A stretch of 32,820 nt of DNA from Candidatus Micrarchaeota archaeon (GTDB lineage: Archaea; Micrarchaeota; Micrarchaeia; Norongarragalinales; SBBD01), in the NCBI GenBank assembly GCA_043813365.1, contig JBDRLB010000072.1:1-32820 (forward strand), in the 5' to 3' direction. Position 1 is the first letter of the stretch. Each line of letters starts with the position of its first letter. The notes under the pieces are model-generated. The model saw nothing but the letters and a program-made list of their open reading frames with translations, searched no databases and was not told the origin of the DNA. Below, in pieces: positions 7,326-29,993 of the stretch. The translations under genes and the position numbers were made by a program.

Positions 7326-8627
7326 TTAGCCCTTGAAAGCCTCATCATTGCCAAGGTTGTCATACACATACGCTGCAGGGGAAATGCGGCAGTTTTCCCC
7401 GATGAGCACGCCACAATTGATCGAGACGTTTATTCCGGTCTTGGTATTCTTTCCTACAACGGCACCGAGCTTGTCCCTTCCGGAGATAACCTTTCCGTCC
7501 GGATTGCGGATCGCTATTGCGGAATGGTCGAATTTCAGGTTTGCAATTTTTGTGCCGGCTCCGAAATTCACGTTCTCGCAGATTATCGAATCACCGATGT
7601 AGGAGAGGTGCGCAGCATTGGAGTTGTGCATTATTATGGAGCTTTTCACTTCGGTGGAATTGCCTACATGGCAGTTGTCCTCGATTACCACGCCCTTGCG
7701 CAGGTATGCATTTGGGCCCACTACGGAATTCTCCCCTATGAATACATTTCCTTCTATGTAGGTGCCGCTCTTTACAACCGATCCCTTTCCGACTCGCAGC
7801 TTGCCCTTCACAACAACAAATTCCTCCACCTTTCCCTCAAGTTTTGGAAGCAATAGCTTTTCCAGCGCATATTCGGATGCCGAGAGATAGTTCCAGAAAT
7901 AACCCACATCGGTCCAGTAGCCGCCGAACTCAAGCGCCTTCAGCGGCTGCTTTTTCGCGAATTCAAGAACCGCATCGGTGATTTCAAATTCTCCCCTTTT
8001 TGAAAGTTTCACATCCTTCAGGAAGGAGAAAAATTCCCGGGGCATGAAGAGCGTTCCCGTTGAAATCAGCTTGTTCTTCGCATCAAGCGGCTTCTCCACC
8101 AGCCCTTTGAGGTTGCCGCCCTCCACTTCCACGACGCCGTATGAGGAAGCGTCCTCTTCCCTCTTCGTAACTATGAACGGCCCGCTGCCGGCGTTTTCCT
8201 TAAGCAGCTTGAAGAAGGAGGGATCAGAGAAAGTATCCGCATTCAGGACGAAGAAATGCCCTGCGTCAACGATTTTTTCCGTGCACGCAACCGCATCCGC
8301 CGTGCCCTTCTGCTCGTTCTGCTCCACGAAAAGGATTTTCCCCGTGGGAGCATGCTTCCCGAAATATGCAGTTATCCTGTGCTTCTCGAAACCGACCACG
8401 ATTATGATCTTCCCCAGCGAATCCCCGAAATTTTCCACTATCCCTTCGACCATCCATTCAAGCAAGGGCTTGTCCAGGATCCTTACCATAGTTTTGGGGT
8501 AGGAGTTCGTTATCGGGCGCAGCCGCTTTCCCTGGCCCGCAGCAAGGAGCACAAAATCGAATTTTTCAACACCTCTAGGGAGGGTACCCTCCCTACTCGT
8601 GTTGCCTCTACCCTCCTTAATTTGCAT
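7326..8627 (-). CDS. glmU: Bifunctional sugar-1-phosphate nucleotidylyltransferase/acetyltransferase (archaeal GlmU)
   Basis: LAAGQGKRLRP, PK, YGVV, VEKP and RGEFEITD motifs, hexapeptide repeats, HLSYIGDS and NFGAGT. Start is ATG 8627 or GTG 8636. The N-terminus includes the hairpin element. Confidence 0.93.
   Translation of the reverse strand: MQIKEGRGNTSREGTLPRGVEKFDFVLLAAGQGKRLRPITNSYPKTMVRILDKPLLEWMVEGIVENFGDSLGKIIIVVGFEKHRITAYFGKHAPTGKILFVEQNEQKGTADAVACTEKIVDAGHFFVLNADTFSDPSFFKLLKENAGSGPFIVTKREEDASSYGVVEVEGGNLKGLVEKPLDAKNKLISTGTLFMPREFFSFLKDVKLSKRGEFEITDAVLEFAKKQPLKALEFGGYWTDVGYFWNYLSASEYALEKLLLPKLEGKVEEFVVVKGKLRVGKGSVVKSGTYIEGNVFIGENSVVGPNAYLRKGVVIEDNCHVGNSTEVKSSIIMHNSNAAHLSYIGDSIICENVNFGAGTKIANLKFDHSAIAIRNPDGKVISGRDKLGAVVGKNTKTGINVSINCGVLIGENCRISPAAYVYDNLGNDEAFKG
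8567..8614 (-). repeat. 48-bp palindromic (REP-like) element, copy A, inside the 5' end of glmU
   Basis: Minus strand reads AGGGTAGAGG-CAACAC-GAG-TAGGGAGGGTACCCTCCCTA-GAG-GTGTTG. Perfect 20-bp core palindrome at 8576-8595; 38/48 identical to copy B. Confidence 0.9.
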
Positions 8628-8632
8628 ATTTA

Positions 8633-9322
8633 TCACTTTTTGTTCTCAATCACATCGATTATTTTCCTCAAATCCCTTTCCGGATCGCCCTGCTTGAAGA
8701 GAAGGTGCCCGCAATGCGGCCCAAGGTCCTGCTGGTAATTGAATGCAACTGAATTTTCCTTCCCTACAAACTCGAACATCGGAACCTCCGAGAACGAATC
8801 GCCCACAACAAGGCATTCGGCGGGCTTGAATTTATTTGACCGGAGCAGCGACTCCAGCTCCCTCCGCTTGGTTTCGGGGGAGACCACTTTCGTGAGCTTA
8901 TGCAAACGGCCTTCCTTAATGGTGCATTCCGATGCTATGAGCGCATCAGGGGAGATATTGCGGCTCGAGAGCGACCAAGCGAGGATCGGCTTTATTGTCG
9001 CAGACAGGATGGCAGTTATGATGCCATTTTCCCTGCAATAATTGAAAATTTCCTTCGAGCCCGAAATGTATTGCAGCTTCCTGGAAGTCTCCCTCAATTT
9101 CCTTATTGGGAACTGCTGGTAGAGTGCGAAGGATTTTTCCCAAACTTTCCCGGGAACCAAATCCCTTTCCTTCGCGTTTTTCGCGCCAGCTAGCCCGGAA
9201 TAGAATTCCCTTGCAAGCGCATCCGATTCCTGCTTCTTCCCCAATTGCTCGAACAGGAAAAGCGGCGACTCCTCCACCGGTATGACGCCGTCAAAATCGA
9301 ATGCGATGAGTTTAATGCTCAT
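8633..9322 (-). CDS. HAD-superfamily phosphatase (phosphoserine phosphatase-like)
   Basis: FDFDGV motif I, ILSAT motif II, Lys motif III and VGDSFSE motif IV. Confidence 0.85.
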   Translation of the reverse strand: MSIKLIAFDFDGVIPVEESPLFLFEQLGKKQESDALAREFYSGLAGAKNAKERDLVPGKVWEKSFALYQQFPIRKLRETSRKLQYISGSKEIFNYCRENGIITAILSATIKPILAWSLSSRNISPDALIASECTIKEGRLHKLTKVVSPETKRRELESLLRSNKFKPAECLVVGDSFSEVPMFEFVGKENSVAFNYQQDLGPHCGHLLFKQGDPERDLRKIIDVIENKK

Positions 9323-11719: not shown

Positions 11720-12619
11720 ATGAAGGGAAAGCTGGTTGTGGAATCAAAATCGCTGGAGAGCGAGATCATAGACCAGAGGCAGCTTTCCATATTATCCGAG
11801 GAGCGCATCAAAATACTGAAAATGCTTTCAAAGGAGCCGAAATATCCCGCCGAGTTGGCGCGGGAGCTGAAAATGCCCGTCCAATCGCTGTATTACCACT
11901 TCAAGCAGCTGGAAGGGGCGAAATTGATCGAATTGGAGGGGTATTCGGAACAACGCGGGGCGATTGCAAGGAAATACAAATGCAATCTCGAGGCGCTAAG
12001 CGTAGTAATAAGGGAGCACTGGCACCCCTTTTCATCAGCTGCTTTCAAGAAGCCCCCGGCATTCATCCAGAATTTCATTTCAGGAAGCCATTTCGAGGGG
12101 AAAATCGTTCTGGGATCGCCTGACCCGCACGGTAAATTCAGGGCGAGGGCGTCGGAATTCTGCGCATCGGAATTCGCAATGTTCCTCGGGAATTATGCGA
12201 CTTTCGATTACCCGCTTTATTTGCTGGACACGGAGCTGAAGGAAAGCCACCGGAAGGGGAATTTGGTGCTCTTTGGCGGGCCGAAGGTGAACATGCTGAT
12301 AAATGAGATCAATCCGTATTTGCCCATCTATTTTGAGGAGAAGGCATTCGGCATTTCAAGCAAATTATCCGGCAAGAAATACACGGAGAATTTCGGCGTG
12401 ATCGAGCTCATCGAGAACCCGTTCGCGAAGGGGAAGAAAATACTGGTGCTGGCAGGAAGCGACCATGAGGGCACGAGGGCAGCAGTGCTTACCCTGCTGA
12501 AGGAAAGGGATAAAATCGAGAAGGGGAATAATTACGACGGGAAGCAGCTTGCGAAGGTTGTGCAGGGCTTCGATGACGACGGGGACGGGATAGTTGATGC
12601 GGTTGAGATATTGGAATGA
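11720..12619 (+). CDS. ArsR-like wHTH transcriptional regulator with a large C-terminal domain
   Basis: ERIKILKML..YPAELARELK..SLYYHFKQLE HTH; GSPDPHG and GGPKVN motifs; terminal DDDGDG. Divergent from glmS. Confidence 0.8.
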   Translation: MKGKLVVESKSLESEIIDQRQLSILSEERIKILKMLSKEPKYPAELARELKMPVQSLYYHFKQLEGAKLIELEGYSEQRGAIARKYKCNLEALSVVIREHWHPFSSAAFKKPPAFIQNFISGSHFEGKIVLGSPDPHGKFRARASEFCASEFAMFLGNYATFDYPLYLLDTELKESHRKGNLVLFGGPKVNMLINEINPYLPIYFEEKAFGISSKLSGKKYTENFGVIELIENPFAKGKKILVLAGSDHEGTRAAVLTLLKERDKIEKGNNYDGKQLAKVVQGFDDDGDGIVDAVEILE

Positions 12620-12726
12620 TTTGTAATTAGAAGGGTAGAGGCGACACGAGTAGGGGAACTAGTTCCCCTAGAGGTGTCGATGACGACGGGGACGGGATAG
12701 TTGATGCGGTTGAAATTTTGGAGTGA
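12570..12726 (+). repeat. 50-bp direct repeat of the regulator's 3' end (12570-12619 and 12677-12726)
   Basis: 47/50 identical. The differences GAG>GAA, ATA>ATT and GAA>GAG are all synonymous in the DDDGDGIVDAVEILE* frame. Confidence 0.95.
12632..12679 (+). repeat. 48-bp palindromic (REP-like) element, copy B
   Basis: AGGGTAGAGG-CGACAC-GAG-TAGGGGAACTAGTTCCCCTA-GAG-GTGTCG. Perfect 20-bp core palindrome at 12651-12670. Confidence 0.9.
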
Positions 12727-12730
12727 GAGC

Positions 12731-13405
12731 ATGCATTTTTCTGTCAATGGAAAAAAGGGGGTATACGTAATTAATTTGGGTCCGCATTCGGAACCCATAT
12801 CAATACCCGAAAAAATATCGGTTGCTATCGTAGAAGCAATATTGCCCGCAAAATACCACACCGAATTGCAGCGGAGGATAAATGAAGGGGAAGCGGACCC
12901 TAGGCTCAATAGGATGTTTAGCGATCCTGCAAATAGGAAAAAGGAAATCTGGCTTTCGGACGTGCACTCCACCGCATTTTCCTATTTTAAGGGATTGCTC
13001 CTCGATAGCCTGAAACTCTGGGAAGTCAACCCCGTTTCCATGAATCCCAAATCGGAAAAACGCAGGAGAATCTCCAGCTGGATGGAACGCAGGCTCCTGC
13101 CGACAATTTGGGGAGCGGGAAGGAGTGCTTACATTGCTGCAGGTGCCGAAGGCTATATTTCCGATCACGTTAGGAGGCAACAGAAGCTTCCCGAAAAGCC
13201 CCTCATTTGGATTAATATGGGCAACAAGCATGCCGCAATCGCGGAATACTTGAAAAAACCGGAAGAAGCGAGGGAATTCATTTTGAAAAGGGAAAAAAGG
13301 TTCAGGAGGAATTTCAGGGATGTTGGCATGATTTATAGGTGCACGTACAAAGATCATCTAAGGCGATGGGTTGTCGAGCCCCACCAATTTAATTTAGGAA
13401 AGTGA
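12731..13405 (+). CDS. Orphan protein, possible TraB/TIKI/EreA-like hydrolase fold
   Basis: ATG 12731 follows GGAGTGA. Motifs NLGPHS, AIVEA, GRS and WINMGNKH. The stop overlaps the next GTG. Confidence 0.55.
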   Translation: MHFSVNGKKGVYVINLGPHSEPISIPEKISVAIVEAILPAKYHTELQRRINEGEADPRLNRMFSDPANRKKEIWLSDVHSTAFSYFKGLLLDSLKLWEVNPVSMNPKSEKRRRISSWMERRLLPTIWGAGRSAYIAAGAEGYISDHVRRQQKLPEKPLIWINMGNKHAAIAEYLKKPEEAREFILKREKRFRRNFRDVGMIYRCTYKDHLRRWVVEPHQFNLGK

Positions 13406-14172
13406 GCTATATGGATATAAAATTCGCATGCATTGTGGGCGGAGTGGAGAACATTTATCCGGGGAAAACGGCAGTAATGGTGGTGCTGGGAGGGTCGGAG
13501 CTGAAGACGGAGTTCGGTTTCTTCGGTCCGCTTGCGATACCGGCGGAGGATTGCTCCGAAATGGCCGTTGAGTCCATGGTTGCGCATTTGAACTCCCAGA
13601 AGGCGAACAACGATGCGGTTGTGATAACCGGCTCGGAGCCGCTGCAGCAGATGGAAGCGGTATTCTCAGTTTGCCAGCAGCTGAAGGAAAAGGGGTTTGC
13701 GGTAAAGATCGAGACTACCGGCTTTTACGCGGATCACCTTGAAAAGATACTTCCGCTCGTCGATTATGTCGCCATGGATTTGAAAACCGAATTCGATGCG
13801 GACAAGCTTGCCGCCCTTACGGGTTTCCGGGGGGAGCCAGCTACGCTGATGCAGGATACATTGAGGAGCATAGGGATACTGAAAAACTACAAGGAAAAAA
13901 AGCCGGAATTTCAAGTGGAGTTTCGGACTACGATAATACCCAAAGTCAATGATACCGAGGAGATAATTGAGAAGATGGCCAAGGAAATCCCTTTTGCGGA
14001 TGTTTACGCATTGCAGCAGTTCATTGCAGAATCGAAACTCGCGGATCCGGAATTGAGGAAGCTGGGAACGACTTCCAAACCTCTTATGATCCAGCTTGCG
14101 GTTATAGCGAAAAAATACGTTAAAAAGGTTGTTGTCCGTACAAAAGATGAGGGGGAGCAGGAAGTAGAATAG
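13402..14172 (+). CDS. Radical-SAM glycyl-radical activase (NrdG/PflA-like) homolog lacking CxxxCxxC
   Basis: YPGKTAVMV, VVITGSEP, VKIETTG, DYVAMDLK, EFRTTIIP and YALQQF match anaerobic RNR-activase-like proteins. The cysteine motif reads SELKTEFG. Start is GTG 13402 or ATG 13411. Confidence 0.8.
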   Translation: MSYMDIKFACIVGGVENIYPGKTAVMVVLGGSELKTEFGFFGPLAIPAEDCSEMAVESMVAHLNSQKANNDAVVITGSEPLQQMEAVFSVCQQLKEKGFAVKIETTGFYADHLEKILPLVDYVAMDLKTEFDADKLAALTGFRGEPATLMQDTLRSIGILKNYKEKKPEFQVEFRTTIIPKVNDTEEIIEKMAKEIPFADVYALQQFIAESKLADPELRKLGTTSKPLMIQLAVIAKKYVKKVVVRTKDEGEQEVE

Positions 14173-29888: not shown

Positions 29889-29993
29889 TGGGGATGCCGA
29901 GATTTGAACTCGGATCAACAGCTTTTCCTGCCCGCCTTGCTTTGCAAGGCAAGCGCCCGAAGCTGCCAGCATACCAGGTTGGCCCACATCCCC
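29889..29993 (-). tRNA. tRNA-Pro(CGG) with a 32-nt intron at 37/38 (intron 29924-29955)
   Basis: Acceptor stem GGGGATG/CATCCCC-A, anticodon arm GCAGC-TTCGGG^A-GCTGT, T arm CCGAG-TTCAAAT-CTCGG. The intron forms an 11-bp hairpin. CCA is not encoded. Confidence 0.93.

Follow-up and report, generated by a model that had tools for sequence, protein, structure and literature searches.

A hairpin element with directly repeated gene ends behind a regulator gene and elsewhere in a family of Micrarchaeota

The stretch of DNA analysed here (the window; 32,820 nt) carries an intact regulator ORF (11720..12619, + strand; 299 aa) that combines an HTH_20/ArsR-type helix-turn-helix with an S_layer_C-like domain (Pfam matches: HTH_20, E 5.5e-13; S_layer_C, 3.9e-12; HTH_5, 5.9e-9) and whose C-terminus reads ...VVQGFDDDGDGIVDAVEILE* in the list of ORFs. 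Orthologues of this regulator occur in 33 of the 40 genomes searched, G000 counted, and the tail is kept at the protein level in 8/8 orthologues examined. The 50-nt end of the gene, stop codon included, recurs downstream (12570-12619 and 12677-12726; 47/50 identical), with a start-to-start spacing of 107 nt and 57 nt between the copies. As an earlier, sequence-only reading of this DNA had stated, the first 37 nt are identical and all three differences (GAG/GAA, ATA/ATT and GAA/GAG) are third-position changes that are synonymous in the regulator's frame. Between the copies lies a hairpin element (12623..12678, +; match to family model R1, 75 bits, E 3.7e-20). That reading let copy 2 begin within the last bases of the hairpin, and bases are indeed shared there, but the target proper begins after the end of the element, which comparison with 42 family members places at 12678 (...GGTGTC). 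The duplicated target is 48 nt long and starts on a codon boundary with the GAT at 12679; the TC that adds two bases to the match is a coincidence of TTC in the gene with GTC in the element. Copy 1 (12572..12619, +) comprises the regulator's final 15 codons and stop and is the functional tail, while copy 2 (12679..12726, +) is an orphan tail whose first base, at a codon boundary, adjoins the 3' foot of the element.

Copy 2 closes with its own TGA, and 4 nt further an ATG opens a 224-aa ORF (12731..13405, +), for which copy 2 does contain the RBS-like site that had been proposed (GGAG, 8-11 nt ahead of the ATG). The ORF matched no Pfam family, and its only relative behind the regulator, a weak one (31% identity), is in one same-genus genome. 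Comparison with related genomes bears out the idea of a variable slot behind the regulator: the element is absent there in 8/8 relatives examined, and the four relatives of the same genus each have a different small ORF. The second copy of the element in the window (8568..8623, - strand) is without a flanking repeat. Inserted in frame just after the start ATG of a nucleotidyltransferase ORF of 436 aa (7326-8636), it would add ~18-19 translated residues; the element is absent from the five same-genus orthologues.

In the element, a 5' flank, TAATTAG, that contains stop codons is followed by the GTAG-tagged sequence GGGTAGAGGC, which is invariant in 42/42 aligned copies (the pattern used to collect them included the tag), and then by a 14-bp hairpin in two parts. 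Its fold has a basal stem of 5-6 bp, a GAG/GAG internal loop and an apical stem of 8-9 bp, and its 3' arm, GAGGTGTC, is Shine-Dalgarno-like and reads (G)GAGGTG. The hairpin in the window (12642-12679) has a predicted RNA MFE of -23 kcal/mol (z -4.2), a value matched by 0/200 shuffles. In the alignment of the family (A2), 95.9% of cells are paired and both sides have changed in 97 cells, compared with 36.8 in shuffles; compensatory changes maintain the hairpin. A bulge-helix-bulge intron was rejected as an identity for the element, as the GAG loops face each other in a 3x3 internal loop and are not staggered, whereas the bulge-helix-bulge motif needs loops staggered by 4 bp. The exact 22-nt core occurs in 8/67 genomes of the order, all of one family, and a covariance model gave 262 matches distributed over 10/10 genomes of this Micrarchaeota family, corresponding to ~5-70 copies per genome of 1.2-1.6 Mb. 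A search of the whole window against Rfam at the gathering score returned a tRNA as the sole match, and a search of 12500-12800 at E up to 10 returned one chance-level hit. By its sequence, the element resembles REP/MITE-type repeats, as a gene-less, GTAG-tagged palindrome of ~50 nt that is mobile, now or in the past, within a single family of Micrarchaeota (DPANN archaea).

The sequence-only reading also asked whether other copies of the element abut duplicated gene ends, and they do. When a repeat was called if it started <=6 nt from the 3' foot of the element, 61 of the 145 copies examined carried one, against 1/145 in a control with mismatched partners; weaker repeats add eight further copies, compared with 0 in the control. 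Three changes alone cannot exclude chance behind the repeat in the window, as that reading conceded, but the family-wide count does, because of the difference between these copies and the control. Compared across copies, the sequences confirm that the tail-hairpin-tail repeat in the window is real and belongs to a family-wide pattern in these tiny archaea. About half of the copies (75/145) are without a repeat, and in this genome repeats were found at four of the eight loci detected by nhmmer. Repeats are 14-99 nt long (median 35) and different at every locus; the longest, on contig C53 of this genome, spans 99 nt with one differing base. The repeated sequence is that just upstream of the element, mostly the last codons of a gene; targets are protein tails, tRNA 3' ends from the T-loop, and gene heads. 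Inserts between the repeat copies at other loci are ~50-60 nt, and copy 2 starts at offset 0 from the 3' foot in 40 of the 70 called pairs. The downstream copy thus begins next to the final base of the element (...GGTGTY), and at its right end the upstream copy reaches a stop codon or just beyond. The TAA/TAG-rich 5' end of the element often provides the stop of the upstream gene, and at three loci (G005:C11, L026 and L056) either the stop or the final codon's last base comes from the element. The upstream gene thus remains whole, with the orphan tail behind the element. On inspection by eye, copies occur singly, or are nested or in tandem in the same orientation, and locus L038 of genome G003 holds an element-tail-element-tail-element-tail array. 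In G003 and G002, one gene has insertions at two different in-phase sites, therefore insertion recurs. In-gene junction sites lack a clear recognition sequence on their upstream side, and downstream they show just a loose R-W-S-G-A-R-W-W-S trend; microhomology between the element end and the gene is not enriched at positions -1 to -3. In the literature outside subscription journals, no account was found of a hairpin element that is associated with long, in-phase repeats of archaeal gene ends.

Could the repeat be an assembly artefact, in which one contig was stitched together from two strains living side by side, of which one carries the hairpin behind the gene and the other elsewhere? The genome is a metagenome bin of 78 contigs with 3% contamination that holds two versions of at least one gene, a sister bin has matches at identical contig coordinates, and contig C128 of the sister bin begins inside the C57 repeat, a type of break typical of repeats. 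Three public runs contain parts of the window (shares 0.29, 0.20 and 0.14), in contigs of 150-560 nt at a depth of 2-4, and no public contig spans 12493-12762. A chimera is nevertheless very improbable. The junction of hairpin and mid-gene sequence must exist in reads, because just 2-3 bases are shared there; the layout recurs at 61-70 of 145 copies in ten bins, five of which are named as different isolates; and pairs with identical copies need no second strain.

To ask how the two copies of a tail differ, we compared 21 ungapped gene-tail pairs with 293 sense codons, in which 235 codons are the same, 47 differ synonymously and 11 non-synonymously (pS 0.32, pN 0.027, pN/pS about 0.09). The position of the stop is kept in 18/21 pairs, although the stop codon itself differs in 11 of those 18, and differing codons are enriched towards the tail end, with 24/58 in the last three codons. 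The excess of synonymous over non-synonymous codons and the kept stops uphold the proposal that both tails evolved as coding DNA. A diversity-generating retroelement was rejected as the source of the differences, which are not adenine-specific; housekeeping genes are among the targets and no reverse transcriptase was found in this genome. The further proposal, that the tails are two alleles and not a target-site duplication, holds for the family as far as alleles are concerned, but its exclusion of a duplication was a false choice. The coding copies are identical in two of the 21 pairs (G002:C2, 51-53 nt, and G003:C55:24878) and the C53 copies differ at one base, so a duplication can arise or spread with no foreign allele involved. 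In two further pairs the stop codon is the sole difference.

Comparison with orthologues gave no consistent answer, over four loci, as to which copy is foreign. At a ribosomal locus of this genome (P1; 39 nt), where three relatives have an empty site, comparison with three orthologues gives 5, 5 and 7 differing sites for copy 1 and 7, 6 and 12 for copy 2. The copies differ from each other at 8/39 sites, a divergence on the level of orthologues from other species in the genus. Here, it is the upstream, functional copy that is nearer to the relatives. The other three loci show no clear difference between the copies in this respect. For one gene head, G003 carries an orphan copy that is more similar to the copies in G002 than to its own partner.

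A striking regularity concerns the junctions, since 24 of the 28 clean ones fall on a codon boundary. Codon phase is not predicted by insertion at the DNA level, and the rule counts against a duplication linked to insertion. A preference for targets that mimic codons accounts for it in part at best: sites with the full motif are in phase 0 in 71% of cases, but just 11/29 junctions match that motif, and with a looser motif phase 0 falls to 46%. Together with the kept orphan stops (18/21), the codon-boundary junctions speak for an alternative in which the duplication arose in place and both copies have been under selection since the orphan tail is still read, for example as a mini-ORF started from the Shine-Dalgarno-like 3' arm, with its (G)GAGGTG, or in a relay of ribosomes to the next gene. 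Individual loci would suit such reading: at C53 and C71 of this genome G-ATG-GNN is inserted at the junction, its ATG sharing the reading frame of the orphan tail, a copy on C20 abuts the ATG of a purS-like gene, and the window has its orphan stop 4 nt ahead of the next ATG. Even so, most orphan tails are without a start codon at the junction, and several are frameshifted near it or have lost their stop. Translational coupling as a general cause was rejected, as a co-directional ORF starts from -10 to +20 nt of the orphan stop in just 4/28 cases, and so was translation of the element in the frame that ends at its last base, which is stop-free in just 76/145 copies and so fares no better than the other frames (64 and 91). 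Selection for a relay would not conserve amino acids. We regard selection in place as quite improbable.

Searches with profiles for Y1_Tnp, Phage_integrase and RVT_1 linked no transposase, integrase or reverse transcriptase to the element. Y1 (IS200-type; PF01797) transposases are present in five of the ten genomes of the family, leaving five of the ten element-holding genomes without one. Six Y1 loci scanned with the model have no flanking element, the nearest copy being >1 kb away, and hairpins near the Y1 gene on C8 of this genome are unrelated to the element; a Y1 transposase was accordingly rejected as the mobiliser. No RVT_1 match was found in this genome, which is 88.6% complete, and therefore an RNA route would be without its enzyme. 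Phage_integrase (PF00589) gave one generic match in this genome, at a contig end.

How, then, might the repeats have formed? We lean, by a modest degree, towards a target duplication linked to insertion, with subsequent reshuffling of the copies between lineages by recombination or transfer, and favour insertion-linked duplication because some pairs are identical. The repeat would form upon insertion of the element, for example from two nicks 14-99 nt apart, or alternatively by strand-displacement synthesis from a nick followed by ligation of the element. Element and repeats would then spread and reshuffle among related lineages through homologous recombination, for which the two repeat copies and the conserved element would provide the homology. 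An exchange would leave the donor allele in one copy and the recipient allele in the other, and differences would therefore be almost only synonymous and the stop kept. In the window, 37 identical nt by the hairpin, three silent changes in the distal 11 nt and variable DNA downstream fit a crossover inside the 48-nt repeat. Against an insertion-linked duplication stand, besides the codon-boundary rule, the copies without a repeat; moreover, we know of no transposition chemistry that yields target repeats of 14-99 nt, and the model would require frequent crossovers within repeats of 20-50 nt.

The sequence-only reading had instead proposed joining directed by the hairpin on one side. This is a live rival, yet an ordinary crossover in the repeat fits the window equally well. 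Put in general terms, the proposal would make a module of gene tail, 3' UTR and hairpin the mobile unit, cut or closed exactly at the 3' foot of the hairpin and joined under the direction of the element. Its carrier might be a mini-circle that a hairpin-specific recombinase or a rolling-circle nuclease produces, or a fragment of foreign DNA. Entry into the orthologous gene of another cell could combine homology on the left with site-specific attachment of the hairpin foot to a position within the gene on the right, or use a single crossover of a circle. In support of such transfer, almost every pair has an exact junction at the 3' foot (offset 0 in 40/70), tails are often divergent at the species level though the insertion is lineage-specific, and the L038 array is as expected of repeated entry at one site. 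Its tRNA targets begin in the T-loop, where many integrase sites in tRNAs also start. The module would parallel the replacement tails brought by endonuclease ORFs in fungal mitochondria or by prophages at gene ends, and in the mitochondrial case, as far as the sections used describe it, the layout is alike, with an inserted C-terminus that is in phase, foreign and mostly synonymous (PMC3630166). However, in-gene junctions have no clear recognition sequence upstream, this genome has one Phage_integrase match and no enzyme is linked to the element, four of the 21 ungapped pairs have no differing sense codon, the P1 upstream copy is nearer to the relatives, opposite to the mitochondrial case, and the initial entry into a new gene requires another mechanism. 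We hold transfer of a module to be rather unlikely. A further reading, for which we see a possible but doubtful case, is that the hairpin is a self-homing cassette that makes, or arrives with, a copy of the last codons of its target gene, the repeats acting as homology arms. If so, the hairpin enters the same gene across species whatever lies downstream and never breaks the gene, and the codon-boundary rule would imply a step that senses the reading frame, such as an RNA intermediate whose 5' end is set by a ribosome, or early translation of the element; to our knowledge, no prokaryotic mobile element has such a step. Overall, the earlier interpretation is partly supported, and a duplication linked to insertion and followed by reshuffling is the reading that we prefer.

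Ultra-small archaeal genomes are tightly packed, and almost any insertion should strike a gene. The element may have a way round this in that it rebuilds the gene end at its landing site, and can therefore reach ~5-70 copies per genome. Its repeats would be dated, allele-level footprints of DNA exchange between co-existing species, and such footprints could trace recombination in organisms that cannot be cultivated. For annotation, orphan tails and in-frame copies lead to spurious small ORFs, spurious N-terminal extensions and broken contigs. Should the codon-boundary rule be mechanistic, it would represent a new kind of target choice.

Several known systems share features with the element. 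The attC sites of integrons have paired R''/R' core sites with the consensus GTTRRRY, cut as G|TTRRRY, and the 3' end of the element (GTGTY/GGGTY plus purine) is just loosely similar. REPs have been described in bacteria. The element does not flank any RAYT-like gene, and its copies, as far as inspected by eye, appear mostly single and not in inverted pairs as in REPINs. REP/REPIN sequences are short imperfect palindromes preceded by GTAG, present in high copy number and associated with RAYT (Y1) transposases, and the REP paper does not contain the word "duplication" (PMC3733652). As described there, REPs, like our element, lie mostly just 3' of co-oriented genes and can give a stop codon at their end, G-U pairs suggest a role in RNA, and some copies are in frame inside genes (PMC3733652). 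Rickettsia palindromic elements are inserted in frame in protein genes, according to the same paper (PMC3733652). The copy at 8568-8623 (-), in frame behind a start codon and translatable, is similar to these, whereas most copies lie behind a stop codon, out of frame and with stops at the 5' end. MITEs are described, in the parts of two papers considered here, as small non-autonomous repeats whose arms are inverted repeats and which have a direct repeat of the target on either side (PMC10969869, PMC11602168). The element shares the small size, the non-autonomy, the inverted-repeat arms and a direct repeat of the target alongside. MITE duplications are short and of fixed length per family (2-10 bp), in contrast to repeats that are 14-99 nt long, locus-specific, start on codon boundaries and can be different alleles.

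Closer in layout are prophages and islands at the 3' ends of genes that carry a replacement end, such as e14 and phage 21 at icd of E. coli. Shared with these are a direct repeat of the gene end on both sides, silent changes in the element-borne copy, a functional gene and tRNA 3' halves as targets. Unlike elements that integrate at att sites, the hairpin (57 nt in the window) is all that lies between the repeats, without integrase or cargo, and in place of a single att core the repeat at each locus is of the local gene end. In fungal mitochondria, mobile endonuclease ORFs make carboxy-terminal duplications (Glomus atp6, atp9, cox2 and nad3; Allomyces atp6), the upstream tail being the in-phase replacement and the downstream one the native tail, and the insert is a homing-endonuclease gene of 0.4-1 kb that explains both cut and homing, as set out in the sections used of PMC3630166. 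Our element, by comparison, is a non-coding hairpin of 50-57 nt (no ORF fits the 57 nt in the window), has hundreds of copies in many genes, tRNAs and gene heads, and has repeats of 14-99 nt. The order of parts is the same in both, with a gene core, an in-phase tail, a mobile insert and a second tail downstream, and in both the tails differ mostly synonymously, with one ascribed to another lineage in the mitochondrial case as those sections give it (PMC3630166).

The regulator locus carries every feature that a sequence-only reading had described: a repeated gene tail with silent differences, a hairpin between the copies, and an orphan TGA ahead of an ATG. The 299-aa regulator (11720-12619; HTH_20/ArsR and S_layer_C-like domains by Pfam) ends in a stretch, 12570-12619, that recurs at 12677-12726 with 47/50 nt identical; the initial 37 nt are unchanged and the differences (GAG/GAA, ATA/ATT and GAA/GAG) are all synonymous. 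An imperfect palindrome (12642-12679), which as RNA folds at -23 kcal/mol (z -4.2), separates the copies, and the orphan tail ends in its own TGA, 4 nt beyond which the ATG at 12731 begins a 224-aa ORF without a Pfam match. Neither hairpin nor repeat stands behind the regulator in any of eight relatives examined (four congeners, two others from the family and two from elsewhere in the order), and the regulator's tail peptide is conserved in these eight. Since each of the four same-genus genomes carries a different small ORF there, starting 0-15 nt past the stop (loci L007-L010; window slot 12620-13405), the element borders a variable slot. The regulator of one more distant relative is directly followed by a radical-SAM-like gene (window 13402-14172). 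Elsewhere in the window, Rfam reports a 105-nt tRNA at 29889-29993 (-) with 44.6 bits, probably an intron-bearing archaeal tRNA; ARAGORN finds no tRNA in the window.

The hairpin belongs to a family. Related copies lie on three contigs of the genome that contains the window (G000; 1.34 Mb in 78 contigs, 88.6% complete), and another lies inside the window, where the search placed it at 8566-8622 on the minus strand; nhmmer gave about eight element loci in G000. Exact matches to the 22-nt core number 27 in five public bins (Candidatus Micrarchaeota or Norongarragalinales archaeon) and 22 in metagenome contigs, the latter leaving five further element loci once 13 that repeat the five bins, two pairs of mutual copies and the non-hairpin loci L051 and L054 are accounted for. 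Within the order, 8/67 genomes hold the exact core, all in one family. An alignment of 42 distinct copies shows basal and apical stems of 5 and 9 bp around a GAG/NAG internal loop, with 95.9% of cells paired and both-side changes in 97 cells versus 36.8 in shuffles. At one stem pair 22 sequences have U-A and 17 have U-G, an alternation that therefore favours a role for the element strand as RNA or single-stranded DNA. A covariance model built from this alignment has 262 matches in 10/10 genomes of the family (5-72 per genome, 10 in G000), and Rfam contains no family resembling the element. At C20:20405-20505 and C71:15322-15427 of G000, one element is nested inside the 5' arm of another, without a long repeat.

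Duplication of gene ends is tied to this element. In G000 the upstream gene's end is repeated directly behind the hairpin at 4/8 loci: the regulator (C72, the window; 48-50 nt), a gene that we take from its peptide to be deoxyhypusine-synthase-like (C53; 99 nt, one base differing), a ribosomal stalk P1-like gene (C71, ...EEAAAGLASLFG*; about 41 nt of coding sequence and about 45 nt of 3' UTR that has diverged) and an unnamed gene (C57; about 83 nt). We then tested 145 copies, comprising the 139 full-length covariance-model matches listed for nine relatives and six from G000, for a local alignment scoring at least 30 between 330 nt upstream and 200 nt downstream and starting at most 6 nt from the element's last base. 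Such a repeat is present at the 3' foot of 61/145 copies, versus 1/145 in a control that paired the upstream of each locus with the downstream of another. The check proposed by the sequence-only reading, whether other copies also abut duplicated gene ends, is thus answered positively, and chance, which it had left possible for the window, is excluded by the same family-wide counts: the window repeat is real. Eight more copies have weaker repeats (control 0), and three further repeats begin farther from the foot, two of them within an array. Repeats measure 14-99 nt (median 35), and copy 2, the orphan, starts at offset 0 in 40/70 called pairs.

The targets are mostly co-oriented gene tails, the others being tRNA 3' parts from the T-loop onward, other RNA-like sequences and gene heads on either strand. 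In 65/145 copies an open frame on the element's strand, 80 codons or longer, ends within 60 nt of the element's 5' side, and in 33/145 an opposite-strand gene ends within 60 nt of its 3' side. The upstream repeat copy terminates at the stop codon or shortly past it, and at several loci the stop, or even the last base of the final codon, is provided by the element's TAA/TAG-rich 5' end. Behind the orphan tail of C53 (L002, ~1655-1715) stands another hairpin of this architecture, though diverged (GGGTAAGGCAACCC...), so the layout there is tail, element, tail, element. One array (L038; G003:C73:31382-31827, in a relative's genome) has at least three elements, each with a further synonymous variant of the 18 terminal codons of one gene (DYK.WVD.YLAKPLLKK*) behind it.

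The junctions fall with regularity on codon boundaries. Among pairs whose copy 2 starts immediately behind the element and whose same-strand frame upstream is open for 100 codons or more, 24/28 junctions do so, or 22/26 with two genes seen twice merged (p ~1e-7 versus one third, 3e-4 versus one half); at the four exceptions both strands carry long open frames, and unfiltered 'tail' calls are in phase 0 in 29/47 cases. As a cause, a target preference at +1 to +9 mimicking codons is insufficient, as are a ribosome relay to the downstream gene (4/28 loci only) and translation of the element in the junction frame, which is stop-free in just 76/145 copies. In the same gene (..VKY.R.E.K..), the junctions of L293 (G002:C2) and G003:C34, from two species, lie at two codon boundaries six codons apart; the element entered this gene tail twice independently. 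Two G000 junctions have an extra G-ATG-GNN whose ATG shares the reading frame of the orphan tail, and the C20 element copy adjoins the ATG of a purS-like gene; both arrangements may be due to chance. The second window copy (8568-8623, minus strand) lies inside ORF 7326-8636, a 436-aa nucleotidyltransferase gene, as an in-frame insertion of 54-57 nt immediately after the ATG that would add about 18-19 residues (..EGRGNTSREGTLPRGV..). Five same-genus orthologues have no insertion and start M-x-(E)K(F/Y)DFVLLAAG, and no repeat flanks this copy, which obeys the codon-boundary rule in another way.

Both tail copies bear the marks of coding DNA. Among 293 sense codons in 21 ungapped tail pairs, 235 are the same, 47 differ synonymously and 11 non-synonymously, a crude count giving pS 0.32, pN 0.027 and a ratio of ~0.085. 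The orphan stop holds the same position in 18/21 pairs, in 11 of those as another stop codon; the last three codons are enriched in differences (24/58), and two- or three-step changes within a codon family occur (AGA/CGC, CTT/TTG). At the P1 locus of G000 the copies differ at 8/39 coding sites, about as much as either does from the orthologues of three same-genus species (5-12 sites), where the site is empty; a fourth has an inverted element there. Every changed codon of the orphan P1 tail (L003, 1540-1585) ends in G or C (GCG GGC TTG GCG TCG CTG TTC), in contrast to the functional copy and three orthologues. At one gene-head locus the G003 orphan copy is nearer to G002 copies than to its own partner. 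Coding copies are fully identical in 2/21 pairs, and the stop codon is the sole difference in two more. Because of these codon, stop and orthologue comparisons, the proposal that the two tails are alleles with a history of selection as coding DNA holds for the element family; the window's three changes alone are insufficient to support it.

Some caution remains as to whether such loci are assembly chimeras of strains. Public-run contigs of the organism are short and of low depth, and none spans the window junction; in a comparison of C45/C16 and C54 of G000 with C40, C75 and C128 of the sister bin G001, at least one gene is present in two versions in the G000 bin, G001 has matches whose contig coordinates are identical, and a G001 contig begins within the C57 repeat with the orphan-copy allele. 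These observations suggest that closely related populations share one sample and that repeats caused contig breaks. Against a chimera, the hairpin-to-gene junction has only 2-3 shared bases, some tail pairs have identical copies, and the tail-hairpin-tail layout occurs in ten bins, five of them from different isolates by record title.

Judged from sequence, the loci combine a conserved hairpin, a precise 3' end, a target direct repeat starting there and preserved gene integrity; insertions recur at many genes, among them one with two distinct in-phase sites in two species, and the two repeat copies carry alleles of different origin. The repeat probably formed upon insertion of the element, and its variable length could reflect two nicks far apart, or a nicked 3' end extended before the element was ligated in. 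Element and repeats may later have been moved or reshuffled among lineages via homologous recombination, for which the repeats and the element's conserved 50 nt would provide homology. In the window, 37 identical nt stand beside the hairpin, the three silent changes fall in the last 11 nt, and the sequences beyond are unrelated (TTTG plus element versus GAGC plus ATG). This pattern is exactly what homologous exchange would produce if the crossover fell within the 48-nt repeat, and an incoming tail and hairpin with the left crossover inside the tail would produce it too; comparison with orthologues, here and at other loci, singles out neither regulator tail as the incomer. The main rival to repeat formation upon insertion, the sequence-only reading's own idea, is that the unit of tail, UTR and hairpin itself travels and a hairpin-specific enzyme joins it at the hairpin foot. 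This candidate mechanism has a parallel in the endonuclease-ORF cassettes of fungal mitochondria (PMC3630166). No enzyme could be linked to the element. An IS200-type Y1 transposase gene in G000 (C8:44-562, L067) is bordered by hairpins that bear no relation to the element; the gene is GC-rich relative to the genome and sits on a ~2 kb contig. Y1 genes occur in only 5/10 element-holding genomes, none flanked by the element, a tyrosine recombinase search in G000 gave one generic match, and RVT_1 has no match in that 88.6% complete genome.

Prophages and islands integrate into gene ends, as e14 and phage 21 do at icd, and MITEs make short duplications of fixed length. In the carboxy-terminal duplications by endonuclease ORFs of fungal mitochondria, the inserted C-terminus is in phase, foreign and mostly synonymous, and the native carboxy-terminus stays downstream of the insert (PMC3630166). 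GTAG-tagged REPs are associated with RAYT transposases, and the word 'duplication' is absent from the paper describing them (PMC3733652). Literature outside subscription journals yielded no description of a hairpin element that duplicates gene ends. The window locus is one instance of an apparently undescribed family of gene-end-duplicating hairpin elements, whose nearest known kinds are these mitochondrial duplications, gene-end prophages, REP/RAYT systems and MITEs, each of which fails to match it in at least one defining feature tested.
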